Source: a virus (Duplodnaviria; Heunggongvirae; Uroviricota; Caudoviricetes). Taken from it: a stretch of 64,000 nucleotides of DNA. Positions 3,335 to 37,110 of this stretch are shown piece after piece. Under the pieces are notes generated by a model. The model saw only the letters and a list, made by a program, of their open reading frames with translations, searched no databases and was not told the DNA's origin. How positions within the stretch are numbered: position 1 is the first letter of the stretch; every line of letters begins with the position of its first letter. Both the position numbers and the translations under genes were made by a program. The stretch lies in IMG/VR virus record IMGVR_UViG_3300045988_003495, one strand, 5' to 3'.

Positions 3335-3721
3335 GTGGTGTGGGTCTTGATAGGCTTACATCACCTTTTTATTTGGAGTTACATTATGGACTTGTGGCTT
3401 TATGTAGCAGTTTGTGGGATTGTATGTCTGATAATCTTATTTATTCTTGGAATAATGCGATTTAGAGACATCATACAGTCAGATTTTTTGCCTGAGTTTG
3501 CCATGATAGTTGGAGTTATTACACTTTGTGTCTTGGCGGTGTTCTATTCATACAAAACTGTGATATGGATGAAGTCAAACAATTGTGTAAAAACTCATCA
3601 ACATCGTGAGGTTACTTATTTTGTGAGTGTACTTAGTGGGAACACCACTGTACTTGTCCCACAAACTTCTGTAGAGTATATTTACACATGTGATAATGGT
3701 AAAACTGTATGGTGGAATTAA
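3335..3721 (+). CDS. hypothetical membrane protein
   Basis: 128 aa with several hydrophobic helices; true start may be the internal ATG (MDLWLYVAV). Confidence 0.3.
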   Translation: MVWVLIGLHHLFIWSYIMDLWLYVAVCGIVCLIILFILGIMRFRDIIQSDFLPEFAMIVGVITLCVLAVFYSYKTVIWMKSNNCVKTHQHREVTYFVSVLSGNTTVLVPQTSVEYIYTCDNGKTVWWN

Positions 3722-3924
3722 CAATGGCAACACTCTTAAAGGTATTGACACCCACACTACACATAGTAATTTTCTTCTTTGGGGTTAGTGTTATGGTATG
3801 GGGTTTTTCTGACCCACAATGGGGTTTCTCATATCATGGTCAGATGGATTTATGGTCATGCTTCAAACCATTTTTAGGTTTAGCTATAGCATTCAGTGCA
3901 TTACCAACTAAGGTGAAATTATGA
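3709..3924 (+). CDS. hypothetical small membrane protein
   Basis: 71 aa, hydrophobic core (HIVIFFFGVSVMVWGF). Confidence 0.3.
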   Translation: MVELTMATLLKVLTPTLHIVIFFFGVSVMVWGFSDPQWGFSYHGQMDLWSCFKPFLGLAIAFSALPTKVKL

Positions 3925-4316
3925 TTAAGTTAAATCAAAAACAGTTAGAGTGGATTAAAGACTATGCCTCAGAGTGTGGCTCTTGTGAAAAGAATCACGT
4001 AAGGTACTCAACATTCCATACAGCCTTTACATTATATCTCAGCGAAAACGTTCTAGCTGATTCTGTAGAAGATGGTGTGTCATTACCTAATGAGTTACTT
4101 GATAAATTAGCTGTAGTTACTGGAACTTGGTCTGAAGAAGATGGTCATGAGTTATCTGATGATGTTGTCTTCTACAGTCTTGAAAACATTATGAATCCAG
4201 AGTATATTGCACTAATGACCTGTGCACAAGACTGTGTAATCTTGCAGGATTTCATCAAGAAACACTGCGAAGAGTTTATTACTAAACAGGTTCCTTGTCA
4301 GGTGGTGTTTGAATGA
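3921..4316 (+). CDS. hypothetical protein
   Basis: 131 aa ORF, start overlaps upstream stop (ATGA coupling). Confidence 0.4.
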   Translation: MIKLNQKQLEWIKDYASECGSCEKNHVRYSTFHTAFTLYLSENVLADSVEDGVSLPNELLDKLAVVTGTWSEEDGHELSDDVVFYSLENIMNPEYIALMTCAQDCVILQDFIKKHCEEFITKQVPCQVVFE

Positions 4317-4612
4317 GTAAAACAATTCGAAGAAAAGGTTTAAAGAACGTTCATGGACTCTACGAGTGGAGAAATGAGGTACGTAACAGAGAAAATGCTT
4401 CAGATGTCTACTTCCATTCTGATATGATGTCCAGAAAAGGTGGCTCTTACGACTTCACAAGCCAGCCTTGTAGAGAGATTAAGAAGGCCACTAAACGTCT
4501 TACAAGAACACAAATAAGGCAGCTTTCTAAGACATCCTTCTTAGATGAAGATTTTGATATTGATAGCAAGTCTCCAAAGAAAGCCGCTAAGAACACTTAT
4601 ATGTATTGGTGA
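4313..4612 (+). CDS. hypothetical protein
   Basis: 99 aa ORF, translationally coupled to the upstream gene. Confidence 0.4.
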   Translation: MSKTIRRKGLKNVHGLYEWRNEVRNRENASDVYFHSDMMSRKGGSYDFTSQPCREIKKATKRLTRTQIRQLSKTSFLDEDFDIDSKSPKKAAKNTYMYW

Positions 4613-4621
4613 GGTAACTAG

Positions 4622-5077
4622 ATGAATTACATGGAGATTCGACCATTTGATACAGCTAATGGTGAAGGGGTTCGTGTAAGCCTCTTCGTAGCTGGCTGCA
4701 AACATCACTGTGAAGGCTGCTTTAACAGGGAGTCTTGGAAGTTTAATGCTGGTAAAGTATTTACTTATGCAAACCTTTACGGAATCATTCAGCTAATGAA
4801 TGATAACGCTATCAGTGGGCTGTCAATACTTGGTGGGGAGCCTCTGGATGATAGAAATATTCAAGAGGTCACCAACATATGCAAGCGTATTAAAACTGTT
4901 TATCCAGAAAAGTCTATCTGGCTCTGGACAGGTTTTCAGTTACACGAAAAAATTCACCTAGATGTGATGAAATATGTTGACGTGGTGATTGATGGTAAGT
5001 ATGATTCATCTAAACCAACAGTTAAACCATATCGTGGTTCTGATAACCAAAACCTCTGGAGAAAAGAGTATGGGTGA
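4622..5077 (+). CDS. nrdG: anaerobic ribonucleotide reductase activating protein (radical SAM)
   Basis: 151 aa; N-terminal GCKHHCEGCFN cysteine cluster typical of glycyl-radical activases; close to nrdD. Confidence 0.8.
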   Translation: MNYMEIRPFDTANGEGVRVSLFVAGCKHHCEGCFNRESWKFNAGKVFTYANLYGIIQLMNDNAISGLSILGGEPLDDRNIQEVTNICKRIKTVYPEKSIWLWTGFQLHEKIHLDVMKYVDVVIDGKYDSSKPTVKPYRGSDNQNLWRKEYG

Positions 5078-5231
5078 CAAGGTGATTGTCAGTGGAGAGC
5101 CGAGTAAATCTCGTCGTAAAATAGGTTATCGGTAAAGGACACTTTACAATGTTCTACAGAACAAACTTAACCGTTTGTGTCACTGAAAAAGAACTTAAAA
5201 CATTTTGTGAAAAGATTGAGAGAGATATGAA

Positions 5232-5480
5232 ATGGGACTCTGGAATAGTTTTAAATCAAAAGTAAAAGCAGCACTAGCTTCATTAGGTATGCTCACTGGT
5301 GTTGATGTGACTCACCTTATGCAGAACTTCAAGATGGACGAGAAGCTGGCTAATGAGATTATGAAAAGTATCTATGTAGGCCGTGGAAAAGGTGGTAAAA
5401 AACAAGCACATCGACCAACTGGTGCAGCAGCAATTAAACGTGCAGCTAAGAAAGCTCGTAACCGTAAACGCAATAAGTAA
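5232..5480 (+). CDS. hypothetical small basic protein
   Basis: 82 aa, Lys/Arg-rich C-terminus (KKARNRKRNK). Confidence 0.4.
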   Translation: MGLWNSFKSKVKAALASLGMLTGVDVTHLMQNFKMDEKLANEIMKSIYVGRGKGGKKQAHRPTGAAAIKRAAKKARNRKRNK

Positions 5481-5491
5481 GGATAACCAAA

Positions 5492-5803
5492 ATGGAAAAG
5501 ATTTATAACACCCGTAAAATTCAGATTTCTATTCTGTGTCAGTTTATGGCTGATAAACACAATTCACATTATTGTGGCACAGGTTTCCTTACTCTTGGTG
5601 GCGGTTACATTAGCTTCAAAGAGGCTGTAAAGATGTACAATGAGCACCCTGAAGATGATAAAGAGCTTAAGCAGCTTAAACTTTCTTATGATAAGAAACG
5701 TAAGAAAATAATCTGCTTGAACAACCTTATCAAGCCAACTGAAAAGGTCTATGATGCAATTGGTGAAGAAGGTTTCTTCAAAGTATTGAAATTAGTTCAG
5801 TAA
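5492..5803 (+). CDS. hypothetical protein
   Basis: 103 aa ORF; hairpin plus T-run follows at 5818-5845. Confidence 0.4.
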   Translation: MEKIYNTRKIQISILCQFMADKHNSHYCGTGFLTLGGGYISFKEAVKMYNEHPEDDKELKQLKLSYDKKRKKIICLNNLIKPTEKVYDAIGEEGFFKVLKLVQ

Positions 5804-5817
5804 GAGTCTATGATTAG

Positions 5818-5845
5818 GGAACTGTAAAGGTTCCCTTTTTATTTT
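5818..5845 (+). terminator. intrinsic terminator
   Basis: gggaac-tgtaaag-gttccc stem-loop followed by tttttatttt. Confidence 0.55.
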
Positions 5846-5854
5846 GGAGATAAA

Positions 5855-6370
5855 ATGTATCTGTCAAACCTGAAACGTTCGGCTGCAATGTCAGTGTTAA
5901 GACTCAGCTTTGAGGAACGTCAAGAGTTCATTGACTCCCACCAATACGACCCCTCAAACTCCAATCACATGATTCTCTGGAATCGTGAGAGTACTCGTGA
6001 AAGAGTATTATTCCGATATTACCCATACTACACCATAGACAACCTGTATGAATGTTTTGTTGTGAAGAACACCATTACAGTACTTAATAAACTTTGCAGA
6101 TACACAGGTAGTCAATCCTTCACATTAGGTCACCACAAGCCTGTTACAAAAGGTGGTGAACATCACTGCGCAAACTGGTTTATCCAAACTAAAGCTGATA
6201 ACCAGAAGCAAGAAGATAGCCTTCTAAGCACTCCTAAGATGACCTATGAAGAGCAAGAGAGATATATCAAAAATAATATGCCAGATGTGCTTGACAACAA
6301 CTATACAGATTTGGCAATATCTCTCCTGTTGAAGTTTGAGACAGTTTATAGGGCAACTTACAATGGCTAA
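5855..6370 (+). CDS. hypothetical protein with possible HNH-like motif
   Basis: 171 aa; GHHKPVTKGGEHHCANW resembles an HNH core but is not conclusive by eye. Confidence 0.35.
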   Translation: MYLSNLKRSAAMSVLRLSFEERQEFIDSHQYDPSNSNHMILWNRESTRERVLFRYYPYYTIDNLYECFVVKNTITVLNKLCRYTGSQSFTLGHHKPVTKGGEHHCANWFIQTKADNQKQEDSLLSTPKMTYEEQERYIKNNMPDVLDNNYTDLAISLLLKFETVYRATYNG

Positions 6371-6641
6371 AGAGAAGTGGGAGATTCTACCATTAGTGAG
6401 TGAAGGTGGTAACGGCTGTGAGATGTACATGATACGTGGTCATGTCCCAGAACCAATTGCACTTGAGATGGTAAACAATTTTACAGATGGCTCTTACAAA
6501 GATTTAGGAGAGCCAACTATAAAGCATCAATGGGTCAAACCTGTACCAGACAGCACAGGTAACTGTAGTGTACTTTATCACGTTGTAGACCCTGCAAAAT
6601 GCAAATCTGCAATGGCAGTAACAAACATAACCTTTGATTGA
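6363..6641 (+). CDS. hypothetical protein
   Basis: ORF track 6336-6641; ATG at 6363 (MAKEKWEIL) avoids most overlap with the upstream gene. Confidence 0.3.
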   Translation: MAKEKWEILPLVSEGGNGCEMYMIRGHVPEPIALEMVNNFTDGSYKDLGEPTIKHQWVKPVPDSTGNCSVLYHVVDPAKCKSAMAVTNITFD

Positions 6642-6656
6642 TAGAGAGAGAAAACT

Positions 6657-7538
6657 ATGAAAACATCTATCCGTGTTACAGTTCATTCACCAACTAAAGG
6701 GACTCATGAAGAAGAGTTTAACATCATCCAATTTCCTTCTGGTGAGATTGGTGGACACTTTTCGCCAGAGTTTGTTGATTTCACTGCTTATGCAGCATCA
6801 TCCATCAACAATGTGATTATGATTGTAAAAGGTTATGACAAGGACACATTGTTTGCTGTGGCACTTGCTAAAGAAGCAATTGATGATTTAATTCCTCATG
6901 ATTATGCTTTAAAGACTGTCATCTTTTACTACTTACCAAATGCACGATATGACCGTCACATGTTTAAAGGCGACGCAGCAGCTTTAAAGGTTTTTGCTAA
7001 ACAGGTAAATGCAATGGGATTTGGTGCAGTCTGTGCAGTTGACCCTCACAGTTACGTTCCAGATAACCTGTTTAACTGCTTCCAGAGTATTCCTCAAAAG
7101 GAGATTGCAGTCCACTATGCAAATGACCCACTGGTTGATTACTTAGTAGCCCCAGATGCAGGTGCTGCTAAGAAGGTTGCAGAGACCGCTAAAGAGGCGG
7201 ATAAACCATATATCACAATGTCTAAGGTGCGTAACCTTAAGACTGGTGAAATTACTGGTATGCGAATCCTTGATGATGTTGATTTGACAGATAAAACCGT
7301 CATGATTCTGGATGATATCTGTGATGGTGGTCGAACCTTCATAGAAGCAGCTAGACATCTTCGTGAAGCAGGTGCAAAACGTGTGGAACTCTATGTAACA
7401 CATGGTATCTTCTCTAAAGATGTTGAAAACCTTCTTGACAATGGCATTGACCACATCTACACTACAAACTCTTTAGGGGAAGCTAAAGACCGTGGCTTAA
7501 CACATTATGGTCAAGTTACTGTAGCAAATTTGGATTAG
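6657..7538 (+). CDS. prs: ribose-phosphate pyrophosphokinase (Prs) homologue; candidate ADP-ribose pyrophosphokinase
   Basis: 293 aa; phosphoribosyltransferase-type PRPP-binding loop (VMILDDICDGGRTF); RBS gagagagaaaactATG. Confidence 0.75.
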   Translation: MKTSIRVTVHSPTKGTHEEEFNIIQFPSGEIGGHFSPEFVDFTAYAASSINNVIMIVKGYDKDTLFAVALAKEAIDDLIPHDYALKTVIFYYLPNARYDRHMFKGDAAALKVFAKQVNAMGFGAVCAVDPHSYVPDNLFNCFQSIPQKEIAVHYANDPLVDYLVAPDAGAAKKVAETAKEADKPYITMSKVRNLKTGEITGMRILDDVDLTDKTVMILDDICDGGRTFIEAARHLREAGAKRVELYVTHGIFSKDVENLLDNGIDHIYTTNSLGEAKDRGLTHYGQVTVANLD

Positions 7539-7546
7539 GTATTAAA

Positions 7547-8038
7547 ATGGATAAGGGTTACTTCGAAAAATACCTAATATACGAACCGGAGACAGGTTTA
7601 CTAATTTGGAAAGTAACCCTTTGCAATACCGCTATTGCTGGTAATGTTGCTGGCACAAGGTCTAAGAAGGGTTATATCCAAGTCCAGATAAATAAGAAGA
7701 GGTACTATGCACATAATATTGCATGGATTATGTCTGGAGGTGAGATACCAAGTGGATATGAGATAGACCACATAGACCTTGATAAATCTAATAATAAGTT
7801 GGAGAATTTAAGACTTAGCACAAAGTCACAAAATCAGAGGAATAGGGGTATATACAAGAATAATAAAACTGGTGTGAAGGGTGTAAGTTTTTGTAAACAA
7901 ACAGGTCTTTACAAAGCAAGAGTCATGCTTTACCATAAAGAATACTTTTGTGGAAGATTTAAAACGGTAGAAGAAGCAAAAGAAGCTGTAATTAAAAAGC
8001 GAATAGAACTTCATGGTGAGTTTGCAAGACATAACTAA
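7547..8038 (+). CDS. HNH homing endonuclease with AP2-like DNA-binding domain
   Basis: 163 aa; HNH_3-type core (YYAHNIAWIMSGGEIPSGYEIDHIDLDKSNNKLENLR) followed by AP2-like segment (GVKGVSFCKQTGLYKARV...GRFKTVEEA). Confidence 0.6.
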   Translation: MDKGYFEKYLIYEPETGLLIWKVTLCNTAIAGNVAGTRSKKGYIQVQINKKRYYAHNIAWIMSGGEIPSGYEIDHIDLDKSNNKLENLRLSTKSQNQRNRGIYKNNKTGVKGVSFCKQTGLYKARVMLYHKEYFCGRFKTVEEAKEAVIKKRIELHGEFARHN

Positions 8039-17339: not shown

Positions 17340-18125
17340 ATGGGTATTGTAAAAATCATCAAAGGTGATATCTTTGACGCCTTTGATAAAGGTAAGTTTG
17401 ACATCATTGGTCATGGTTGTAACTGTATGAATTTAATGGGTGCAGGTATTGCAGCAACTATTTCTAAGCGTTATCCAAAAGTGTATGATACTGACACAGA
17501 AGTTTACCTGTTTGCAGGTGGCATTCGTCACAAACCCTGTGAAAATTTACTAGGTAATTTCTCTGTAGCACGTTTAAAACAAGGCCGTATAGCTAACCTT
17601 TACACCCAACTTCATACTGGTAAAGATGCCCGATACAGTGCTTTAGAGTCATCCTTGAAACAGCTTAACAGATACTGTGAAGTTAACCAGTTGAAGAAAG
17701 TTGGTCTACCTATGATTGGTGCAGGTATCGGTGGACTTGACCCTCAAGCTGTCACAGTTATCATTAATCAGGTGATGAAGAGTGTAGATGTTTATCTGTA
17801 TGTCTATGAAGCAAAAATGTATAATGAGTTACACTCAGGTTGGAAAAACTACTGTGAACCAGAATACTTTGCAGGTGTAGTTGTGTTCACAGATAACGCA
17901 GTTACCCTCTTCAGACGAAGAAAAGGTAAGATACATCAAAGTAACCCTCCGGTTGAAAAGATGTCTCTAAGTAACGCTCTAGTTACCCACCTGTCGAAGA
18001 GCAATCACAGAATTGCAGTAACATTTGGCAGTGATGCAGATGCTTATATCTATGCAAGAACTGATGAGGATATTGAGTTAATCCTCTCTTCACCAGAACT
18101 TACCTTCTTAGACGCAAAGAACTAA
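17340..18125 (+). CDS. macro-domain protein (ADP-ribose binding/processing) with C-terminal extension
   Basis: 261 aa; canonical macro signatures GDIFDAF...DIIGHGCNC and MGAGIAATIS in the N-terminal 60 aa. Confidence 0.7.
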   Translation: MGIVKIIKGDIFDAFDKGKFDIIGHGCNCMNLMGAGIAATISKRYPKVYDTDTEVYLFAGGIRHKPCENLLGNFSVARLKQGRIANLYTQLHTGKDARYSALESSLKQLNRYCEVNQLKKVGLPMIGAGIGGLDPQAVTVIINQVMKSVDVYLYVYEAKMYNELHSGWKNYCEPEYFAGVVVFTDNAVTLFRRRKGKIHQSNPPVEKMSLSNALVTHLSKSNHRIAVTFGSDADAYIYARTDEDIELILSSPELTFLDAKN

Positions 18126-18187
18126 GAAACTTCGTAGTATATTCACAATAGACTAAGCCTTTCTTATCTGGTAAATTTTTCAGGTAA

Positions 18188-18400
18188 GGAGGGCTTTTTC
18201 ATTTCAGATTTGTGCAGGTAGAGTTCTGTAGAGAAATCTATAGAGAAAATTTTGAACTCCAAAGAGAAAATTCATTTTCAAACTGTGCAGGTAATCTCCA
18301 AAGGGTTTTTTCATTTTCAAAACGTGCAGAGAAAAATCAGGTCGGGCAAGAAAAATCATTTTAGAATTGTGCAGGTAGGTGGGGGTAGGTGGGACTGTCG
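18188..18400. repeat. four direct repeats (iteron-like) sharing core tCATTTtcAaAnTGTGCAGGTA, plus tandem gtaggtggg x2
   Basis: Copies near 18200, 18272, 18312 and 18353, spaced about 40-70 bp apart, in a 500-bp non-coding gap. Confidence 0.6.
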
Positions 18401-18554
18401 CCATTTCTCACAAGGCTACCACATCTGAAAATAAAAGTCAACAGAAAAATTTGTAGCGGATTGAAAAATAATTCTTGATTGTAGTTCTGTTTTGTGGTAG
18501 TCGCGCGCACCCGTTTCATTACAATTTTTGCAAAAAATATTTTTAAAAATTTTC

Positions 18555-18583
18555 TTGACTCTTTGAACTGGGTTATCTAATAT
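18555..18583 (+). promoter_or_regulatory. sigma70-like early promoter
   Basis: TTGACT (18555-18560), 17-nt spacer, TAATAT (18578-18583); preceded by an AT-rich tract (18520-18554). Confidence 0.55.
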
Positions 18584-18635
18584 TTGCATCAGACGGGGCG
18601 ACAAGCTCAACAACCTTAAACTAGGAGATTCAAAA

Positions 18636-19019
18636 ATGGCATATCGTGCACCTAAATTCATCAACAAAGACAACTTTCGCAACGCACTGGAGAAGTCACT
18701 TGATGAAAATTTTAAAGGTAACATTATCGTTGTTCACGCATTCAATTTTAAGTATGATGTAAACGGGAATAGAATCAACCATTACACGGCAACCATGTTA
18801 GATGGTACACTTTCAAGTGAAAAAGCCGTACTAAATGCACTGGCAGGACGTGGAAAGGTATTAGTAAGATGTGATAAGAGACGTTATCAGGGCGGTGCAT
18901 ATGGTTATGATGATGCTGTTTACCATCTTGAAAATATGGGCTATCAAGTAGAAAAAGCTGGAGCATCACAAATCATCGGCAGTGATGGTTATGTAACTAT
19001 CTTCAAAATTAACAAATAA
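18636..19019 (+). CDS. hypothetical early protein
   Basis: 127 aa; RBS aggagattcaaaaATG shared with the downstream early-gene family. Confidence 0.5.
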   Translation: MAYRAPKFINKDNFRNALEKSLDENFKGNIIVVHAFNFKYDVNGNRINHYTATMLDGTLSSEKAVLNALAGRGKVLVRCDKRRYQGGAYGYDDAVYHLENMGYQVEKAGASQIIGSDGYVTIFKINK

Positions 19020-19031
19020 AGTACTTTACAA

Positions 19032-19060
19032 GGGGCTTATAGTTCGATAAAGTAAGCCCC
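19032..19060 (+). repeat. conserved 5'-leader hairpin (ggggcttatagttcgataaagtaagcccc), member of a dispersed early-gene cassette family
   Basis: Identical copies at 21273-21301 and 22406-22434; close variants near 19413 and 22070; a second hairpin family (ggggagggaatgaccttcccc) near 20743, 21796, 23365 and 23925. Confidence 0.6.
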
Positions 19061-19105
19061 AGATAAAGAGCTTTACTACTCAATCCTAAATTGGAGAACT
19101 TAAAA

Positions 19106-19399
19106 ATGGCTATTATCAAAAACGTTGTAATTACTGCAAAGACTCGTGATGACGCTCGCGTTATGGCTAAAAAGTTATGCGGTAAAGTGGTTGACAACGG
19201 AAAACAATCTGCTGTAAGGTGGGGCGTGAAGGTTGATAAACAGTTGAAGTTAAAAAATTCACCGATAAACCTTTTTACATGTGTAAACACTATCGGGAAG
19301 ACAAATGTATACACGAAAAAGGCATACATTAGACGCGTAGCATTAACATCCCCCATTCGTACAATGAGAAGTTATGCAAAGCTGAAAATTAACAAATAA
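19106..19399 (+). CDS. hypothetical early protein
   Basis: ORF track begins at TTG 19091; ATG 19106 has the conserved RBS ttggagaacttaaaaATG. Confidence 0.5.
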   Translation: MAIIKNVVITAKTRDDARVMAKKLCGKVVDNGKQSAVRWGVKVDKQLKLKNSPINLFTCVNTIGKTNVYTKKAYIRRVALTSPIRTMRSYAKLKINK

Positions 19400-19484
19400 A
19401 GTACTTTACAGGGGGCTTAAAAGTTGATATCTTAAGCCCCAGATAAAGAGCTTTACTACTCAATCCTAAATTGGAGATTCAAAA

Positions 19485-19997
19485 ATGAAAACTGTAGACG
19501 CTACCTTTGAAGTTGTAAAAGAAAAATTCACTATTATTTATGAAGCTGTCAATTGCTTTGAAGCAAGCCATAATCTTGATAATTGGAAGTTTACAGATGA
19601 CCATCAAGGCGGCGTGACTGTTAAAAATCCTAACTGTCAGCGTAATGAATTTAAATATGCAATCCCTTTACATTACAGCCTTAAACAGCTTTCAAGTGAC
19701 TATGCAAAACAAGGCCGTGAGAATCCATCGAAAGAGGCTTACACGAGCTTACAGAAAGAACTAGAAAGAGATTTAGAGGCTTCAGAGTATAACCTTGCCG
19801 CGAAAGTTGTGGATGCAAACGGTAGCACGGTTTTAGAAAGTTTTTATCTTGGTTATGCTTTCGATTGGTGCTATCGTGACGGCGATGATTTAGAGGATAG
19901 ACTAAAAGAAGAGGTGAACAACGCAGACGCAGAATCTGAAGTATTAGAACGTTTGGAATCGTTGAAAGACTCAGTGATGAATATCTTTAAGAACTAA
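19485..19997 (+). CDS. hypothetical early protein
   Basis: 170 aa, conserved leader and RBS upstream. Confidence 0.5.
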   Translation: MKTVDATFEVVKEKFTIIYEAVNCFEASHNLDNWKFTDDHQGGVTVKNPNCQRNEFKYAIPLHYSLKQLSSDYAKQGRENPSKEAYTSLQKELERDLEASEYNLAAKVVDANGSTVLESFYLGYAFDWCYRDGDDLEDRLKEEVNNADAESEVLERLESLKDSVMNIFKN

Positions 19998-20089
19998 ATA
20001 GATTCCTTTACACGGGGTTATCAAGCTGGTAGGATAGCCCCAGATAAAGAGATTTATCAAATAAAGCCCTTAAACTAGGAGATTCTAAA

Positions 20090-20386
20090 ATGAAATTATC
20101 AAATAAAGTCCGTGAAAATTTAAGCAAGTTACTTAATAAAATTGATTTCATTGAAACATCAAGGAATAGTCATGATGTTATGGAATGGTTACACGGAAAA
20201 ATCAAAGGCCGTCGTGTAGTGATTTGCTTATGGAACAGTTGCAGGGAGTATAAAAAACCTGTATTGCAAGTCAATATTTATGATGATACTTTTAAAAGTC
20301 CTGTAAAATCTAAAAGCGATTTATTAGAATCCTATGAGATAACTGTAAATGGCAAAGTATCACGTAAAGAGGAAACACCATGTTAA
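20090..20386 (+). CDS. hypothetical early protein
   Basis: 98 aa, conserved RBS. Confidence 0.45.
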   Translation: MKLSNKVRENLSKLLNKIDFIETSRNSHDVMEWLHGKIKGRRVVICLWNSCREYKKPVLQVNIYDDTFKSPVKSKSDLLESYEITVNGKVSRKEETPC

Positions 20387-20712
20387 TGACTGGTATCACT
20401 GCAATCATTGCCATTTTCGCTCTATATAAGGCATATAAAGCCTATAATCTAGCAAATAAGGCAACCACCCAGCAGGTTAGCAATAGCCTTGTAGAAAGAT
20501 TTCTAGGGCGTTTAAGTGATGAGCAAATAAAGCGGCTAGAGATGAGCTTCAGATATAAAGCGAAAACCTATCAGATAAGTGACATCTTCAAAGATAATTT
20601 TCAGTTAGTTGATGATTATAATTCTCTGATAAATGCTTTAAATGTCAGTGACTTAAAAGACTACTACGCTGTAATTGTTCAAGAATTGAGCAAACGAAAA
20701 CAAAACTGTTGA
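20380..20712 (+). CDS. hypothetical early protein (N-terminal TM)
   Basis: 110 aa; hydrophobic N-terminus (ITAIIAIFALY). Confidence 0.45.
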   Translation: MLMTGITAIIAIFALYKAYKAYNLANKATTQQVSNSLVERFLGRLSDEQIKRLEMSFRYKAKTYQISDIFKDNFQLVDDYNSLINALNVSDLKDYYAVIVQELSKRKQNC

Positions 20713-20737
20713 CACTGGTTTTTAGATAGATTAAATT
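20709..20737 (+). promoter_or_regulatory. sigma70-like early promoter
   Basis: TTGACA, 17-nt spacer, TAAATT; near-identical copy at 21762-21790. Confidence 0.5.
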
Positions 20738-20802
20738 ACACATCAACGGGGAGGGAATGACCTTCCCCACTAAATAAAGCCCTTAAACTAGGAGATTCAA
20801 AA

Positions 20803-20961
20803 ATGTTTTGTGCAGGTGATAAAGTTGTCTGGAATGATATAGATGACGGTTTATGTACGAAAGTTGTTGTTATCTTAGAAATTGATTATATCACTGGTGT
20901 TGCAACTGTAGCAGATAATGATATAATCTTTGATGTCTTAATTAGTGAACTGTCAAAATAA
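20803..20961 (+). CDS. hypothetical early protein (52 aa, below track cut-off)
   Basis: Translated manually: MFCAGDKVVWNDIDDGLCTKVVVILEIDYITGVATVADNDIIFDVLISELSK; preceded by conserved leader hairpin and RBS. Confidence 0.4.
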   Translation: MFCAGDKVVWNDIDDGLCTKVVVILEIDYITGVATVADNDIIFDVLISELSK

Positions 20962-20987
20962 AATCCTTAAACTAGGAGATTCTGAAA

Positions 20988-21260
20988 ATGTATACTACTA
21001 ACAACGGTCGCACTTTAAACGTAACCCTGCGTCACTATGTGAATGGTGTGATGCACTTTGATGATTTACAAGCTGAGCAACACATCTTAAATTGGCAAGT
21101 TGCAGGACTCCAAAAAACTGCTACAGGATACGGGAAAAAGATTCCAACCAGTTGGAAAGTATACTACAAAGGACGTTTGCGCAGAATTTATCAAGACGTG
21201 CAAAGCAATAGCGCATCGAGTTACATTATAGTAAAAGGCAAAAAACTGCATTTAATGTAA
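20988..21260 (+). CDS. hypothetical early protein
   Basis: 90 aa, conserved RBS. Confidence 0.45.
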   Translation: MYTTNNGRTLNVTLRHYVNGVMHFDDLQAEQHILNWQVAGLQKTATGYGKKIPTSWKVYYKGRLRRIYQDVQSNSASSYIIVKGKKLHLM

Positions 21261-21346
21261 AGCACTTTACAAGGGGCTTATAGTTCGATAAAGTAAGCCC
21301 CAGATAAAGAGCTTTACTACTCAATCCTAAATTGGAGAACTTAAAA

Positions 21347-21751
21347 ATGGCTATTAATAACCGTGAATTATCAATTTTAAAAGCACGTTTGACCGTTAAC
21401 CGGATTAATGTTATCACGTCATCAGCACCAGATGAAACACTGCAAAACATTATTGGGAAGATTCAAAGTGTTATCTTAGACGTTGAAAGCGTAAAAAACT
21501 CATTGACTGACGTTGCAGCAGGTATCACGCTAGACGGTGCACAACATGAAATGGCCGACATGTTAGGCAAATCTAAGGTAATGAATAAAGAGTTAGATTT
21601 GAAAATGTTCCGATTTGCTGTTAAAGTGTGGTTATCTGTCGAGTATGATGCTAACTTTGCAATCGCTGACTTTTTTGCCACTTGGTTGCAGCGTAATTTG
21701 GCAAATCACGATTTCCGTAATATCTGCGATGCAATTTATGCAGAACTATAA
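21347..21751 (+). CDS. hypothetical early protein
   Basis: ORF track begins at TTG 21332; ATG 21347 carries the conserved RBS. Confidence 0.5.
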   Translation: MAINNRELSILKARLTVNRINVITSSAPDETLQNIIGKIQSVILDVESVKNSLTDVAAGITLDGAQHEMADMLGKSKVMNKELDLKMFRFAVKVWLSVEYDANFAIADFFATWLQRNLANHDFRNICDAIYAEL

Positions 21752-21761
21752 AAAATTTTTG

Positions 21762-21790
21762 TTGACACTGATTTTTAGATAGGCTAAATT
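21762..21790 (+). promoter_or_regulatory. sigma70-like early promoter
   Basis: TTGACA, 17-nt spacer, TAAATT, followed by leader hairpin. Confidence 0.5.
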
Positions 21791-21853
21791 ACACATCAAC
21801 GGGGAGGGAATGACCTTCCCCACTAAATAAAGTCCTAAACTGGAGATTCAAAA

Positions 21854-22057
21854 ATGGCTATTATTAATGGTTTAACCATTGAAACTACACACATCAAAGA
21901 TATCAAAGTTGGTGATATAGTCCTTTCCCACGGCGTAGAAAAAACTGTCACTGCAAAGGATATCAAAGAGGATTCTTTCATGGGTAGGACTCTCTTCGGT
22001 GATTCTTATTGCTTAGGCTATCTTGCAGTTTTAAAAGTTGTCAAAAATAACAAATAA
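21854..22057 (+). CDS. hypothetical early protein
   Basis: 67 aa, conserved RBS. Confidence 0.45.
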   Translation: MAIINGLTIETTHIKDIKVGDIVLSHGVEKTVTAKDIKEDSFMGRTLFGDSYCLGYLAVLKVVKNNK

Positions 22058-22144
22058 AGTACTTTACAAGGGGCTTAAAAGTTGATAACTTAAGCCCCAG
22101 ATAAAGAACTTTACCACTAAATCCTAAACTGGAGATTCTAAAAA

Positions 22145-22393
22145 ATGATGAACTACTTTAACATTCCCGATACCTGTAGATTATTGACACAAGAAGAAAA
22201 TTTGGGTAAACCTTTCATTTACCACATGCCAGATAACACGGCAAAAACTTATAGTTACAATGTTAACCGTTTCACCGCATACGCTGCAAAGAACGGCTAT
22301 AGGTTGGTTACTCAAAAAGTAATGCTGGTTACAACTGCTGGCGAGATTCCTACAGTTGCAGTCAAACTAGTTTTCTCAAAGAAAGTTAAATAA
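22145..22393 (+). CDS. hypothetical early protein
   Basis: 82 aa, conserved RBS. Confidence 0.45.
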   Translation: MMNYFNIPDTCRLLTQEENLGKPFIYHMPDNTAKTYSYNVNRFTAYAAKNGYRLVTQKVMLVTTAGEIPTVAVKLVFSKKVK

Positions 22394-22480
22394 AGCACTT
22401 TACAAGGGGCTTATAGTTCGATAAAGTAAGCCCCAGATAAAGAGCTTTACCACTCAATCCTTAAACTAGGAGATTCAAAA

Positions 22481-23023
22481 ATGAAATGTTATCACGGAAC
22501 TACTCAAGAAAATTTCCTCAACCTGATTAATAACGGTGATAAACCATCAGGCGCATGGAATTGTTCGGATATGGACGGCAATTTTTACGTGTATCCAGAA
22601 AATAAAATCTATGGCGACGATGATGAAGAGATAACATCGGAGGGCATTCAGCAAGCTCTAGGGAACGCCACTATTACGGCGGCCTTCCAGATGAAAACCC
22701 AAAATATTGTTATCTTAGAACTCGATATTCCAGATGATGAGCTAAATGATGATTATTCTTGTGATAATATGTCGAGTGTAGCAAGTTTTACAGAGTACTT
22801 TGATGTAAACTGGATTAAAAAGGTCTATACAACAGAGTTTAACGCTATGTATTCGCCTTTTTGTCTTCCTTCACTGGATAACCCAAATATGAACTATCTT
22901 GATGAGACATTAGAACTACTTGCTAAAAGTGTTCAACAGTCGGACAGTATTCAGGTTTTTTGTGACATCATAGATACACTGACAGGAAACATTGCAGAAG
23001 AGGATTTAAAGAGCTTTTTCTAA
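22481..23023 (+). CDS. hypothetical early protein (acidic)
   Basis: 180 aa, conserved RBS. Confidence 0.5.
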   Translation: MKCYHGTTQENFLNLINNGDKPSGAWNCSDMDGNFYVYPENKIYGDDDEEITSEGIQQALGNATITAAFQMKTQNIVILELDIPDDELNDDYSCDNMSSVASFTEYFDVNWIKKVYTTEFNAMYSPFCLPSLDNPNMNYLDETLELLAKSVQQSDSIQVFCDIIDTLTGNIAEEDLKSFF

Positions 23024-23054
23024 AAACCTATGCAATCACCTTATAGACACTAAT

Positions 23055-23078
23055 CAGCCCCTTGTAGGGGCTTTTAGA
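23055..23078 (+). terminator. intrinsic terminator-like hairpin
   Basis: agcccct-tgt-aggggct followed by ttt. Confidence 0.45.
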
Positions 23079-23089
23079 GGGCTTAAATC

Positions 23090-23323
23090 ATGCTTACAAC
23101 CGTTTACCTCATCCTTTCTATTTGTAACGGTCATTCATGCGATTTTAAAGGGCTTGAAGAGTTTACAGGAAGTAAAGAAAATGCTATTCAAGTTTGCCAG
23201 ATAGCAAGGAAAGACTATCCCGCTAGTGATGATATACAATGTTACTTTAAGACAGAAGATGACGACGGAATCTATTTCGACAGTGTTGACGGTAAATATG
23301 AAATTATCATTGAAAAAGACTAG
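23090..23323 (+). CDS. hypothetical early protein
   Basis: 77 aa ORF. Confidence 0.45.
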   Translation: MLTTVYLILSICNGHSCDFKGLEEFTGSKENAIQVCQIARKDYPASDDIQCYFKTEDDDGIYFDSVDGKYEIIIEKD

Positions 23324-23415
23324 ACAAGCCCGATAAAAGTCTGTAAATTGTCAATCAACGGGGAGGGAATGACCTTCCCCACTAAGTAAAGTCCTTAAAC
23401 TAGGAGATTCTAAAA

Positions 23416-23757
23416 ATGGCTTATGTAACCGTAATTACCGATAAAGCTGGCGCATCTTGGTCAACTCAGGTTAGTGATAAGATGTCACCTATGCAGTGCC
23501 TAAAATACTTTGAACAGTGGAACAAAGGCGAGGACACAAGCCCCTTTCAAGTGATGCAGATTATCCATGTAGATAACGAAGGGAATAAAACGGTTTTAAA
23601 TAGTGAGTACTACGCAAGCCGTTTTGAAACGAGAAGTAAAACAATGAAGCTTTTACGTGAATCCGGTTATGCCCATATCGCCGCGTTAATCTGGGATGAC
23701 CTGCTAAAAAACCAACGTATCAGCTATGTAAAACCTGAAAAAATATTCATCAGTTAA
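23416..23757 (+). CDS. hypothetical early protein
   Basis: 113 aa, conserved leader/RBS. Confidence 0.5.
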   Translation: MAYVTVITDKAGASWSTQVSDKMSPMQCLKYFEQWNKGEDTSPFQVMQIIHVDNEGNKTVLNSEYYASRFETRSKTMKLLRESGYAHIAALIWDDLLKNQRISYVKPEKIFIS

Positions 23758-23979
23758 TCAATAACTTACAAAAAACTTTTAAAAAAGTGTTGACAATACC
23801 CCTTGACATTGGTAACTTTGTTCGAGGGGGTTTATCTAAAAGGGATTCACTTAAAAGATTCTTTATAGATAAGCTCAAAAAATTACTTGCAATCAACTAT
23901 CAAAACAAGTAAATTACTAATCAACGGGAAGGCAATAACCTCCCCACTAAATAAAACCCTTAAACTAGGAGATTCAAAA

Positions 23980-24228
23980 ATGGCAACTATCCGCGCTACT
24001 GTCAATGCCTATGGCTGTTATACTCTGGACGTTAAATTCGATATTGGTGGAACTGATGAGTGTTTTTCATTAGTGAAGACAGTTATCAAACAAGTTATTC
24101 CAGATTATAACCCTACTGATGACTTCTGGAAAGATGCTGTAAAAGAGGCATTAAACGACGAGCATCACTATCATTACTGGGGTGACTTGATTGTTTCCCT
24201 GTACTACAATAAACAAGGTTACAACTAA
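23980..24228 (+). CDS. hypothetical early protein
   Basis: ORF track 23887-24228; ATG 23980 follows the conserved RBS ggagattcaaaaATG. Confidence 0.45.
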   Translation: MATIRATVNAYGCYTLDVKFDIGGTDECFSLVKTVIKQVIPDYNPTDDFWKDAVKEALNDEHHYHYWGDLIVSLYYNKQGYN

Positions 24229-24266
24229 TCGACGCAGCGGGGCTAAATAGCCCCAGATACCTCAAC

Positions 24267-24292
24267 AGCCCCTATTTAAAGGGGCTTTTTTA
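24267..24292 (+). terminator. intrinsic terminator closing the rightward early region
   Basis: agcccc-tatttaaa-ggggct followed by tttttt; a second hairpin sits at 24239-24254. Confidence 0.6.
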
Positions 24293-24636
24293 CGTCTATT
24301 GAATCCTTATACAATCCCTTTCCTTTCCTTTCCAGAATCTTACTAGACCTTAAAAGCAATAACTCTATAGTCTACTCTATAACCTCTTATCAAATCAACT
24401 TAAATATAAGCCCATAACCCGAAAGGGAAGGGCAACCGTTTAAACGCTCTATAAAGCTCTATAACAGCCTTATCAACCTAACTTAAGGGATTGCATTAAC
24501 TCACCCTTAAAAGCCCTTTATAAAGCTTCTCAGAGACTTAAAAGAATCTTATAAGGGTGTAAGCTTTATCGTCTCGTTAGTTATCTTGTGAATATCTAAA
24601 AAGGGCTTGTTAGTGTCTTAAAAGTATGTTATAGGG

Positions 24637-24698
24637 GCTATAAAGTTACGTAAAAGAGGCTATAAAGTTACGTAAAAGAGGCTATAAAGTTACGTAAA
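24637..24698. repeat. tandem direct repeat, 22-bp unit gctataaagttacgtaaaagag x about 2.8
   Basis: Units at 24637-24658 and 24659-24680, partial third at 24681-24698. Confidence 0.8.
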
Positions 24699-24759
24699 TA
24701 CTAGCCCCCTTAACATTCTCTTAACAATTTCTTAACAATCCCTACATAGTTATGCTTTT

Positions 24760-25800
24760 AAGGCACTTGTTAGCAACTTGTTAGCCCCTTGTTAAATCTC
24801 TGTTAAGACCACGTAAAAGCCTTGTAAGAGTCTTTGACATAGCCTTAAAAGCTCCTGTAAAGCCCTATAAAGAGCTATCTGTACAGTTGGGGTGTAACTA
24901 CTAGGAAGAGACTTAAAAGGGGCTATACAGAGCTATAGAGAGCTTTTAAGAGGTATGTTTAAGGAATCACTAAGAAAGGAAAGGGAACGATAAGAAAAGA
25001 GATAGTGACCATGTTAATAGCTTGTTAAAAAGATTAAACACTTGTTAGAGACTTGTTAATTATCTTAACAAAATAACTCTTAAAAATTAACTTGTTAGCT
25101 CTTGTTAGTCATCTGTTAAGAGACTATAAAGACCATGTATCGACTGTTAAGAACTTGTTACAACCTTGTTAGTTCTGTTAAGAGTCTGTTAAGACCTCTG
25201 AAGAGATGTTAAGAAGGTGTAAGGACTGTTAAGAGATTGTTAAGGATATTTTAAAATTTTGCAAAGTACTTGTAAGGGAGCTGTTAAGGGCTACCAAGCA
25301 GATATACACCCTAATCAGATATTTTTCAGTTCCTTCAAAGACCCTAAAAAATGACTTGACAGTCTTATTTTATAAAAATTTTAAAATTCTGAATAATTAC
25401 CTAGACAGTCTTTTAAAAATACAGGTAGAAACAGGCTTATAAGATACCTTGTTAATACCGTGTTAGACCTTGTGAGATAAGGTCTGTAAAGATATTCCTG
25501 TTAAGTTTGTTAAAACAGTCTATATAGAGGCTTAGTAACACCTAGTGAACACCTATAGAGAGTGTCATAGCTTACATAGAGATTAAGAGGTGTATAGGAG
25601 CTTCTAAGAGTGTGTAGAGAGATGGTTAAGATGATTGTATAGGTTGTTTAGAAGGCTTGTTAGAAGAGTGTTTAGATGGCTATTTAGAAGGGCTATACAG
25701 AGGGCTATTAAGACCACTAGATAGTTACTAAGATACTATATAGTACTATATAACTATATAGAGAGTAAGATTAAGAAGATTGTTAAGAAGGATAGATATT
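24760..25800. repeat. dense array of short motifs TGTTA(A/G) (cTTGTTAG / cTGTTAAG), about 30 copies
   Basis: For example cttgttagcaacttgttagccccttgttaaatctctgttaag and gactgttaagaacttgttacaaccttgttagttctgttaagagtctgttaagacc; no ORF of 60 aa or more in any frame. Confidence 0.7.
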
Positions 25801-25859
25801 TTATTCACATATGATGGTGACCCAGAGGTTGGGACAACCGATAAAATTTTATAAAAATT

Positions 25860-36886: not shown

Positions 36887-36959
36887 GGGGTATTAGTTTA
36901 GACGGTGAAAATACGGGATTATCTCTCCTGAGCCGCGAGTTCGATTCTCACATACCTCG
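36887..36959 (+). tRNA. tRNA with atypical anticodon loop (ttatctc, apparent anticodon ATC; Asp-like?)
   Basis: Good acceptor (ggggtat/atacctc), D-arm and T-arm (gcgag-ttcgatt-ctcac), but A34 and T37 are unusual; Asp is otherwise absent from the cluster. Confidence 0.4.
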
Positions 36960-37110
36960 CCAATTTTGAGAGGGCTATTTAGCCCCTCCCTTAAAGAGTT
37001 CTTACGAGTATCCTTTAAAGGAGCAGAAGACCAAATACAGCAAGTTACTTAAAATTTCAAGCCAATTCAATTTTGAAAAATTTAAAACTTGGTCTGGCTC
37101 AACAAATTTA

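Follow-up and report, generated by a model that had tools for sequence, protein, structure and literature searches.

The 64,000-nucleotide stretch of DNA considered here (IMG/VR virus record IMGVR_UViG_3300045988_003495, from a virus of the class Caudoviricetes, and called the window in what follows) contains, on its + strand within 18636–24228, an array of 14 small open reading frames (ORFs) of 52–180 aa, most of which are preceded by a spacer of about 90 bp that recurs in similar form from one gene to the next. The question raised by this locus is what these repeated units are: in particular, to which RNA the hairpins within them belong, and what part, if any, the repeats play in the gain and loss of the genes that they separate. 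An earlier note on this DNA had described nearly every gene of the array as carried on a stereotyped cassette, in which a promoter was followed by a hairpin of one of two families in the 5′ leader and then by a conserved ribosome-binding site (RBS), and had suggested that the repeats might serve as recombination substrates. The answer reached here is that the cassettes are probably units of the PeSL type (i.e. an early promoter, a stem-loop and a Shine-Dalgarno (SD) sequence) in a Felix O1-like phage. The PeSL concept is already known; it is the membership of the Felix O1-like lineage, a type A hairpin of three tiers that encloses its promoter, and a type B hairpin defined by its position that are new details.

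The window belongs to a Felixounavirus. Its region 19000–24300 matches 254 phage records, nearly all of them Felix O1-like myoviruses of Escherichia, Salmonella, Shigella and Citrobacter, and gives its best match with Escherichia phage vB_EcoM_ASO1A (97% identity over 94% of the query). For comparison the homologous region was fetched from 12 relatives, namely the Felixounavirus phages ASO1A, Felix O1, P54, KhF2 and SLAM_phiST56, the Mooglevirus or Moogle-like phages Moogle, ESh20, ESh21 and pEC-M719, and three phages of Kolesnikvirus or related to it (Erwinia phages Harbringer and vEam_PM_6, and Salmonella phage PMBT37); Hafnia phage Zyzzx was fetched in addition. Coverage of the array region in the relatives ranges from 93% to less than 10%. 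The record for P54 (PV390658) is filed under Tequatrovirus, while being clearly that of a Felixounavirus.

Repeated units and their distribution

That the repeats are real, far beyond chance and restricted to the array is clear from simple counts. The RBS word TAAACTAGGAGATTC has seven exact copies, confined to 18617–23975, against a chance expectation of about 0.06 matches in 64 kb with one mismatch allowed, and none of 100 shuffled sequences reached seven; GGGGAGGGAATGACCTTCCCC occurs in three exact copies and one variant; and the type A core, CTTTACA-N-GGGG-N-T-N10-TANNNT, was observed six times against an expected 0.00. Repeat finding gave a 99-nt family with copies at 19017, 19397, 21258, 22055 and 22391 (and a sixth, divergent copy at 19998) and an 80-nt family with four copies, at 20707, 21760, 23319 and 23885. 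All cassette copies in the 64 kb lie at 18.6–24.0 kb, among ORFans.

Both of the hairpin sequences quoted in the earlier note, its 17-nt spacers and its conserved RBS are to be found at the array, as are the roughly 14 small genes of which it spoke, but its description of a cassette on each gene went too far: a full cassette precedes ten of the 14, type A in six cases (genes starting at 19106, 19485, 20090, 21347, 22145 and 22481) and type B in four (20803, 21854, 23416 and 23980). Among the remainder, gene 18636 has a promoter and an RBS without a hairpin, gene 20988 has an RBS only, gene 20380 overlaps the gene before it, and gene 23090 lies 3′ of a terminator-like hairpin and has a weak SD sequence.

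Profile searches over the fetched loci found 67 + strand copies of type A, of which 60 are distinct, and 41 distinct copies of type B, spread over three genera. In the phage database as a whole type A occurs in 289 records (1368 places) and type B in 248 records (1407 places), i.e. about five copies of each type per genome; the matching records all look like Ounavirinae except those of Staphylococcus phage SA1 and Campylobacter phage A132, which we take to be mislabelled or chimeric. The −35, the 17-nt spacing and, in the −10, the T, the A and the last T show next to no variation over the 60 type A and 41 type B copies, and the view of the units as sigma-70-type promoter and RBS cassettes set in front of ORFans can be retained, the putative promoter and RBS roles being well supported by this conservation. 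The 25 nt upstream of the −35 hexamer are also A+T-rich (75–76%, against 63% for the array), with an invariant A-tract some 5–7 nt before the hexamer.

Type A units

All six type A copies in the window have an identical three-tier fold of 59–61 nt and about 20 bp, with folding energies (dG) of −20.9 to −26.5 kcal/mol and z-scores of −2.7 to −5.3. The inverted repeat, with arms of 23–33 nt, exceeds the 29-nt GGGGCTTA...TAAGCCCC, so that the real structure (e.g. 19017–19075) is about twice as long as the hairpin first proposed. Reading inwards, there is a lower stem of 6–7 bp (AUAAAGU/GCUUUAC), the 5′ strand of which includes the stop codon of the upstream gene, with a 1×1 mismatch above it; a middle stem of 5 bp (CUUUA/UAAAG); an internal loop of 3×3 residues (CAN/AGA); and an upper stem of 9 bp that carries a terminal loop of 10–11 nt. 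The promoter is embedded in this structure rather than preceding it, as the earlier note had supposed: the −35 hexamer TTTACA forms the 5′ side of the middle stem and internal loop, the 5′ arm of the upper stem begins 1 nt after it, and the −10 hexamer (TAAAGT, TATCTT, TAGGAT or TAACTT), exactly 17 nt after the −35, spans the end of the terminal loop and the first base of the 3′ arm. Seven nt past the −10 lies the last C of CCCC, followed by AGA, which would put the start of transcription at the 3′ edge of the upper stem (start sites being predicted, here and below, solely from the usual 7-nt distance to the −10).

In the first type A cassette (19017–19108, + strand like all those that follow) the hairpin at 19017–19075 includes the previous stop codon, with the −35 (TTTACA) at 19025–19030, the −10 (TAAAGT) at 19048–19053, a predicted start at about 19060–19062, the SD at 19093 and the ATG at 19106. 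The second (19397–19487) has its hairpin at 19397–19455, −35 at 19405–19410, a TG-extended −10 (TATCTT) at 19428–19433 and ATG at 19485. The third (19998–20092) is the divergent copy, with stems GGGGTTATC/GATAGCCCC and AUAGAUU/GAUUUAU; its hairpin lies at 19998–20057, the −35 at 20007–20012, the −10 (TAGGAT) at 20030–20035 and the ATG at 20090. For the fourth (21257–21349) the corresponding positions are 21257–21317 for the hairpin (dG −26.5 kcal/mol), 21266–21271 for the −35, 21289–21294 for the −10 and 21347 for the ATG; for the fifth (22055–22147) they are 22055–22113, 22063–22068, 22086–22091 (TAACTT) and 22145; and for the sixth (22391–22483) 22391–22449, 22399–22404, 22422–22427 and 22481.

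The wider set of 60 distinct copies tells the same story. The −35 is TTTACA in 59 of them (TTCACA in the other), the spacer is of 17 nt in 56 and 18 nt in four, and in the −10 the initial T and A and the final T are invariant (TAnnnT in 60/60) while the middle three bases vary, giving 13 different hexamers; TG is present at −15/−14 in 32 copies. Invariant hexamer positions together with a 17-nt spacing amount to the profile expected of a sigma-70 promoter. As to the fold, the three-tier architecture was recognised by eye in 59 of the 60 printed structures; a regular expression that was too strict had accepted 21 of 60.

The arrangement in which the 5′ arm comes directly after the −35 and the 3′ arm ends at −1, bracketing the promoter, recurs in unrelated sequences. 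The nhmmer models of types A and B found nothing in Hafnia phage Zyzzx, which has sequence families of its own with the same architecture (CTTGCA-GGGGTT...GATAAT-AACCCC-ATCGAAAC); in Erwinia phages the bracket reads TTGCAA-A-GGGGTTA...TAACCCC-GTCGAAAC, and the T4-like phage RB49 is likewise bracketed. Such recurrence suggests that the geometry itself is selected, presumably for some functional reason. Zyzzx also contains, at 2500–7600 of the fetched locus and after tandem TTTTGTAAAG repeats, a further cassette family in which the loop of the hairpin (AAAGGGGA-TTGATTAG-TCCCCTTT) contains the −35 (TTGATT) and the −10 (TAATAT) is 3′ of the hairpin, making a third mode of overlap between hairpin and promoter.

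It is this geometry that bears most directly on the RNA to which a type A hairpin belongs. Because the predicted start is at the hairpin's 3′ edge, transcripts from the unit's own promoter would exclude the hairpin, and only RNA reading through from upstream would fold it. The proposal that every hairpin of both types sits in the 5′ leader, where it protects, processes or regulates the transcript that follows, is true by geometry for type B (see below), and even a type A hairpin would come to lie in a long leader of the downstream gene if transcription began upstream of the TTTACA promoter, for instance by read-through. As an account of all the units, however, it is quite unlikely: the type A hairpin encloses both −35 and −10, with the predicted start at its 3′ end, the 5′ arm holds the upstream stop codon in nearly all of the 60 copies, and the same bracketed layout is found with unrelated sequences in Zyzzx, the Erwinia phages and RB49. 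The earlier note had itself named beforehand, as the case that would go against it, one in which transcripts start elsewhere and the hairpins serve only as terminators of the upstream gene, and the type A geometry is that of this case, placing the hairpin at the 3′ end of the upstream message.

Two further candidate elements in the type A flank were considered and rejected. A second promoter in the 3′ flank (TTTACT...) has no acceptable −10 at the right distance, and a small 5′ hairpin in the RNA initiated within the unit (UAAAG-AG-CUUUA) would have too small a loop.

Both hairpin types are kept, in the aligned copies, by compensatory changes across the three genera. For the 60 distinct type A copies, pairing is found in 96.5% of cells, as against 55.7% at most when the 3′ partners are slid out of register, and the covariation score is 0.147 compared with 0.077 in shuffles, with none of 500 reaching the observed value and 45 cells changed on both sides. 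Among the compensatory changes, G-C has become U-A in the upper stem in the Erwinia-type phages (GGTG/CACC) and also in the lower stem, where one pair runs through the series U-G, C-G, U-A. Read as RNA, the + strand pairs in the 96.5% just given and the − strand in 89.1%, and there are 102 G-U cells to 14 A-C cells, an excess that favours the + strand as the one that folds. There is thus good evidence in the alignment that the type A structure is under selection, and moderate evidence that it acts as + strand RNA.

The same comparisons weigh on the possibility that the inverted repeats act on DNA, either as operators for a dimeric repressor, of phage or host origin, that would shut off the early promoters or as cruciform or hairpin promoter elements. 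The type A repeat does overlap the −35, spacer and −10, which is the classic position for an operator, and its flanks, ATAAAG-NN-CTTTAC, are nearly invariant and are themselves palindromic. Nevertheless, we regard a role of this kind as very unlikely, given that the stems change sequence yet keep their pairing (GGGG/CCCC becoming GGTG/CACC, lower-stem G-C becoming U-A in six copies, and the type B hairpins taking 26 different sequences), as would not be expected at a site for a sequence-specific protein, that in the divergent subfamily of type A the 5′ flank has lost its local palindrome and still pairs with the 3′ flank, that G-U pairs so outnumber A-C, and that the type B repeats lie downstream of the predicted start. 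Hairpin promoters of the phage N4 type have 3-nt loops and require a virion RNA polymerase. A promoter of that type was rejected here, as the loops are of 10–13 nt, the sigma-70 hexamers are good and there is no phage RNA polymerase, Felix O1 encoding none (PMC3185647).

Type B units

In type B the order of elements is the one originally described: a −35 of TTGACA, TAGACA or TTGCAA, 17 nt, TAAATT, 10 nt ending in ATCAAC, the hairpin (GGGGAGGG-AAUGA-CCUUCCCC, at −13.7 kcal/mol, or a variant), an A-rich linker, the RBS and the ATG. The first such cassette (20709–20805) has its −35 (TTGACA) at 20709–20714, −10 (TAAATT) at 20732–20737, predicted start at about 20744–20745, hairpin at 20748–20768, SD at 20791 and ATG at 20803; in the second (21762–21856) the −35 is at 21762–21767, the −10 at 21785–21790, the hairpin at 21801–21821 and the ATG at 21854; in the third (23321–23418) the −35 (TAGACA) is at 23321–23326, the −10 at 23344–23349, the hairpin at 23360–23380 and the ATG at 23416; and in the fourth (23887–23982) the −35 (TTGCAA) is at 23887–23892, the −10 at 23910–23915, the hairpin (GGGAAGGCAATAACCTCCCC) at 23926–23945 and the ATG at 23980. 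All four are on the + strand.

All 41 distinct copies have a spacer of 17 nt and all have 10 nt from the −10 to the hairpin, the −10 itself being TAAATT, TAAAGT, TAATAT or TAGTAT. The hairpins, in contrast, take 26 different sequences with stems of 4–8 bp, and in 30 of 32 distinct segments pairing begins at the 11th nt past the −10; to judge from these copies, type B conserves position and pairing but not sequence. Initiation 7–8 nt past the −10 would leave about 3 unpaired nt on the 5′ side of the hairpin. The placing of hairpins in the 5′ leader thus holds good for type B, with its hairpin 10 nt after the −10, and fails for type A, whose hairpin is upstream of the predicted start and includes the previous stop codon.

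Emory, Bouvet and Belasco reportedly found in 1992 that 5′-terminal stem-loops, such as those of the E. coli ompA 5′ untranslated region and the T7 phi10 leader, stabilise mRNA. The type B hairpin, some 3 nt from the predicted 5′ end, has the geometry that is said to block 5′-end-dependent attack by RNase E; it differs in that its transcription start is a predicted one, the type B unit being known here from its sequence.

The hairpins and transcription termination

Hairpins of this kind have been annotated as ordinary Rho-independent terminators in GenBank records: in that of ASO1A a type B "promoter" is directly followed by a "rho-independent terminator", and the record of KhF2 also has terminators. 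A G+C-rich stem directly 3′ of a gene is indeed what an intrinsic terminator would offer, and in reporter constructs RB49 stem-loops of this style cut downstream lacZ expression as strongly as rrnB T1 (PMC2839356). It is nonetheless highly improbable that the cassette hairpins are terminators of the standard sort. The sequence following the hairpin is CCCCAGATAAAG for type A and CCCCACTAAATA for type B, CCCCAGAUAAAG and CCCCACUAAAUA also standing after cassette hairpins, and there is no U-tract after any of them; a scan for stems with T-runs on the + strand of 18000–25000 returned only 18155–18196 and 24267–24286, and no cassette hairpin passed. The phage, moreover, uses textbook terminators at the ends of its operons (18155–18196 and 24267–24291), and type B hairpins, being downstream of their own promoters, would if they were terminators end their own transcripts 25 nt past the start. 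The two records even disagree about the strand, ASO1A placing the type B terminators on the + strand and KhF2 placing them on the − strand. One consequence of the present analysis is accordingly that this annotation should be corrected.

A terminator-like hairpin of a different kind, AGCCCC-TTGTA-GGGGCT followed by TTTT, lies at 23056–23075 (+ strand) between the 180-aa and 77-aa genes, where there is no cassette; its T-run is below the threshold of the scan. A search of Rfam at a permissive E-value gave only sub-threshold matches to mir-980 on the − strand (24.7 bits against a gathering score of 47), reflecting the long hairpin.

Exchange of genes at the spacers

Comparing gene content between cassette copies in related phages had been put forward in the earlier note as a check. 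When this is done, in a table of ORF families covering 13 loci, the array is found to be largely collinear across Felixounavirus and Mooglevirus, and where the phages differ it is by the presence or absence of one gene or a small block of genes, with cassettes on either side; the Erwinia-type phages have the shared genes in rearranged order. Homology blocks between the window and five close relatives have 28 internal ends, and every one of these lies in a spacer or no more than 9 nt from a gene edge, a description that fits 30% of positions. There are also cases in which the same gene is preceded by a different type of unit: Moogle, pEC-M719 and ESh21 have type B before the 180-aa gene, which in the window has type A; ESh20 and ESh21 have type A before the 113-aa gene, which in the window has type B; and pEC-M719 has type B before the 134-aa gene, again with type A in the window.

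Chimeric spacers are found exactly where a relative lacks genes that the window has. The single spacer that remains there is a composite, its left part matching the window's upstream cassette and its right part the downstream cassette, with the switch inside the shared core between hairpin and RBS. Examples are SLAM_phiST56, which is without the 82-aa gene, and Felix O1, which is without the four genes of 21854–23323 and, at another site, without the 52-aa gene, the switch in that last case falling inside the RBS word. Chimeric spacers at the sites of missing genes are just what recombination between direct repeats predicts, and the suggestion that the units are recombination substrates is borne out by these comparisons, in that gene presence and absence, swaps of cassette type and chimeric spacers in the relatives all map to them. 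Slots bounded by cassettes would mark the places where accessory early genes are swapped, which should be of help both in mining for genes of host takeover or anti-defence and in engineering insertions.

Several of the incomplete spacers in the window can be set beside their counterparts in relatives. The first cassette of the array (18555–18638, + strand) is degenerate, with a TTGACT-17-TAATAT promoter at 18555–18583, an RBS at 18617–18631 and the ATG at 18636, and no hairpin; downstream of this promoter ASO1A, KhF2 and SLAM_phiST56 have a type B hairpin and, in addition, two small genes (of 62–63 and 68 aa) that are lacking in the window, and the joint at 18555–18635 looks, from this comparison, like an imprecise deletion. 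The spacer at 20962–20990 (+ strand) holds an RBS only (20968–20982, with the ATG at 20988), and phages without the 52-aa gene have a full type B cassette before the homologue of gene 20988. Between the 113-aa and 82-aa genes, 23758–23886 is an unusually long spacer with overlapping TTGACA motifs and a CCCCT...AGGGG repeat; because relatives have one or two extra genes at this site (of 176 and 87 aa), with a type B cassette for each of them, it is probably a deletion scar. Finally, genes 19106, 21347 and 21854, which are mutually unrelated, all begin with ATGGCTATTA (Met-Ala-Ile), and the repeat family D1 extends into these codons; recombination joints may thus reach into the start of the coding sequence in these three genes.

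Relation to the PeSL units of T4-like phages

PeSLs have been described in T4-like phages (RB49/phi1, PST/T4 and nt-1/KVP40) as consisting of an AT-rich region, a strong sigma-70-like promoter, a stem-loop (often with a G-run and a C-run), an SD sequence and an ATG (Arbiol et al. 2010, PMC2839356; Comeau et al. 2014, PMC4122927). In hyperplastic regions they cluster between ORFans, in association with insertions and deletions (PMC2839356; PMC4122927); they also yield mini-circles by recombination, and for RB49/phi1 promoter and attenuator or terminator activity was reported using lacZ reporters (PMC2839356). Every one of the features of this description that can be read from sequence is found in the present units: −35 and −10 hexamers about 17 nt apart, AT-rich sequence upstream, a stem-loop, an SD and ATG, clustering among ORFans, and insertions, deletions and chimeras bounded by cassettes. 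The likeness extends to a stem-loop of a G-run and a C-run that lies between −35 and −10 or overlaps the latter, to an SD and ATG at the 3′ end of about 70–100 bp of conserved sequence, to indels, replacements and chimeric cassettes between close relatives in a plastic region, and to the −35 itself, TTTACW being that of the T4/PST set also.

Twelve RB49 spacers were folded for comparison, and consist of TTGACA, the stem-loop GGGGATC-loop-GATCCCC as the spacer or over the −10, and then ...CATACCGAAAC... and GGAGAATCAAAATG; none of these stems is followed by a U-tract. The leader and RBS wording of RB49 (CCCCATCGAAAC, GGAGAATCAAAATG) is also similar to that found here. RB49 (112000–132000) and the Ounavirinae cassettes share CCCCATCGAAAC and GGAGAATC[AT]AAAATG despite having no overall homology, which could reflect either convergence on host signals or an exchange of cassettes between phage families.

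There are nonetheless differences of detail. The lineage here is Ounavirinae and not Straboviridae, with no homology to T4-like phages that blastn detects; the type A stem-loop, of about 20 bp in three tiers, also encloses the −35 and the upstream stop codon; and there is a separate type B class with its hairpin at a fixed position past the start. The promoter and terminator activities and the mini-circles are known from RB49/phi1, whereas the cassettes here are known from their sequences. With these reservations, identifying the units as PeSL-type would extend that idea from T4-like phages to the unrelated, therapeutically used Felix O1-like phages of Salmonella, E. coli, Shigella, Citrobacter and Erwinia. 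In the Felix O1 genome paper 57-bp and 39-bp units are listed as direct repeats without interpretation (PMC3185647); the searchable literature gave no description of the units in Felix O1-like phages beyond "direct repeats", and they are not mentioned in the wV8 paper or in a comparative paper on Felixounavirus.

REP and BIME elements of enterobacteria are intercistronic palindromes that stabilise the upstream cistron and are hot spots of recombination. They resemble the present units in being repeated imperfect palindromes in intergenic RNA; they differ in having neither promoter nor RBS and in being elements of the host and not of a phage.

Proposed mechanism and the RNase III alternative

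A mechanism can be suggested that starts from what is observed, i.e. the anatomy of the units, the conservation and covariation of their structures, the lack of U-tracts and the breakpoints and chimeras at cassettes, and that adds promoter activity, start sites and an effect of the hairpins on RNA as inferences from the sequence. Each spacer would supply the ORFan that follows it with a separate host sigma-70 promoter and with a strong RBS, and would also put an RNA hairpin at one end of a message. The type A hairpin would mark or create the 3′ end of the upstream message and protect it, a role proposed because it occurs only in read-through RNA, starts at the stop codon and is long and stable; it might do so through attenuation, which has been claimed for RB49, through processing by an endonuclease within the internal loop or through protection from 3′ exonucleases, and the expression of each gene would in consequence come mainly from the promoter in its own spacer. 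The type B hairpin would be the 5′-terminal stabilising stem-loop of its own transcript, and homologous recombination between the near-identical direct repeats of about 90 bp would delete, insert and re-pair single genes. This scheme makes exact predictions for the ends of the early transcripts, and a promoter within a long hairpin, two positional classes and a clean record of recombination together make the array a good system in which to test how such stem-loops act.

A number of points must be remembered as telling against the PeSL identification or the mechanism attached to it. Shared ancestry inflates the counts of copies and of breakpoints, the 28 block ends representing about 12 distinct breakpoints and fewer than 28 events. 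The middle stem of type A is invariant and doubles as the −35, so adding nothing to the covariation evidence, and the strand asymmetry is modest and comes mostly from two columns, the mean folding energies of the two strands being alike (−22.7 against −21.6 kcal/mol). There is no established mechanism for efficient termination in the absence of a U-tract, and the reporter test used with RB49 cannot tell termination apart from processing or decay of the RNA; nor did the searchable literature contain any mapping of 5′ or 3′ ends for a Felix O1-like phage.

If the type A hairpin acts through processing, one candidate enzyme is the host RNase III, in the style of the early region of phage T7. Cleavage of polycistronic read-through RNA would fall in the AGA of the internal loop, on its 3′ strand; the upstream mRNA would be left with a protective hairpin at its 3′ end, and the downstream mRNA would acquire a 5′ end identical to that of transcripts begun at the embedded promoter. 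This would be a sharper form of the processing branch of the mechanism just given. The type A hairpin, the three coaxial tiers of which add up to about 20 bp, and which has a conserved internal loop of 3×3 (or 2×2) and a dG of −21 to −26.5 kcal/mol, has the two-helical-turn shape of an RNase III site, unlike type B with its stems of 4–8 bp, although this is a matter of shape only. Five T7 intergenic regions, which we take to be those of the early sites R0.3, R0.5, R1, R1.1 and R1.3 (sites that carry no annotation in the T7 record), fold similarly, with an upper stem of 9–10 bp, an internal loop, an interrupted lower stem of about 9 bp and a dG of −20 to −26 kcal/mol. Both sets of irregular hairpins are intercistronic in an early region transcribed by the host polymerase, promoters immediately adjoin the T7 hairpins too, the predicted type A start coincides with the internal loop, and the missing U-tract makes termination unlikely as the sole role.

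Against this, the resemblance to T7 is one of shape, and shape alone does not define an RNase III substrate. The type A loops are of 10–13 nt where those of T7 are tetraloops, the promoter is inside the hairpin, and each gene has its own promoter, so that processing is not needed to separate the cistrons; the type B stems are in any case too short for RNase III. In the main text of a genome-wide Salmonella host screen that included Felix O1, rnc (RNase III) goes unmentioned, and a general literature search on RNase III sites in phages produced nothing specific. We consider RNase III processing of type A to be a concrete hypothesis, though a rather doubtful one.

A more elaborate version, to which we attach still less weight and which is best regarded as speculative, would make type A a purposely dual-coded element, a complete sigma-70 promoter inside an RNase III-type hairpin, with coupling through the stop codon and a discriminator of the stringent type. 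If this were true, RNA initiated at the promoter (with a 5′-triphosphate) and read-through RNA cut at the internal loop (with a 5′-monophosphate) would have a 5′ end in common; through its place in the lower stem, the upstream stop codon would link formation of the hairpin with translation of the preceding gene; and the 3′ arm, being G+C-rich, would serve also as a discriminator of the stringent type, tying early expression to host physiology, which may bear on reports that Felix O1 is sensitive to RpoS activity and to the nutrient state. The similar wording of the RB49 leader and RBS would in that event suggest that cassettes move between unrelated phage families.

The array, its borders and neighbouring sequences

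Returning to the PeSL-type units and the genes that they serve, the 14 ORFs of the array, all on the + strand, are at 18636–19019 (127 aa), 19106–19399 (97 aa), 19485–19997 (170 aa), 20090–20386 (98 aa), 20380–20712 (110 aa), 20803–20961 (52 aa), 20988–21260 (90 aa), 21347–21751 (134 aa), 21854–22057 (67 aa), 22145–22393 (82 aa), 22481–23023 (180 aa), 23090–23323 (77 aa), 23416–23757 (113 aa) and 23980–24228 (82 aa). Pfam gave zero hits for all 14 proteins, and 13 of them fall in PHROGs families of unknown function, the 52-aa ORF at 20803 having no PHROG match. Reverse transcription PCR (RT-PCR) on Felix O1 found genes 13, 16, 20, 21 and 22 to be maximal at 5 min and genes 14, 17, 19 and 23 at 25 min; the Felix O1 gene numbers were assigned to the array families by way of the repeat positions given in the Felix O1 paper, and the assay is a coarse one. 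The label "early" is accordingly a weak one for these genes, drawn solely from an assay in which five homologues peak at 5 min and four at 25 min.

The array forms a + strand block 3′ of a macro-domain gene (17340–18125) and of a strong intrinsic terminator found by the terminator scan at 18155–18196 (+ strand), the 17-bp stem and T-run of which end the upstream operon and mark the left border. The right border (24239–24291, + strand) consists of a truncated type A upper hairpin with CCCCAGATA at 24239–24258, without a promoter, and the second intrinsic terminator, 24267–24286 plus its T-run to 24291. The two terminators are t13 and t23 of Felix O1 (PMC3185647). The remnant at 24239–24258, GGGGCTAAATAGCCCCAGATAC, with its CCCCAGATA tail and no −35 or −10, stands directly before the true terminator and resembles the degraded "half PeSLs" of T4-like phages.

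Short repeats are found on either side of the array. Between the terminator at 18155–18196 and the first early promoter at 18555, the interval 18200–18380 has four copies of CATTTTCA[AG]A-N-TGTGCAGGTA, each 3′ of a T-run, and similar repeats occupy the equivalent place in Erwinia phage Harbringer (about 4050–4170 of the fetched locus). On the right, 24300–25850 is a stretch of about 1.5 kb without any ORF of at least 100 aa, lying between the early array and a block of − strand genes; it holds dozens of short repeats (CTTGTTAG, CTGTTAAG, TTGTTAA and CTATA[AG]AG), as well as a 22-bp tandem repeat, TAAAGTTACGTAAAAGAGGCTA, present three times at 24641–24698, and the repeats look like a protein-binding array, e.g. 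an origin, a packaging site or a regulatory region. Elsewhere in the window there is a cluster of 25 tRNA genes, typical of the Felix O1-like group, inside which ARAGORN reports a tRNA-Asp with the unusual anticodon ATC at 36887–36962 that may be a pseudo-tRNA or a miscall.

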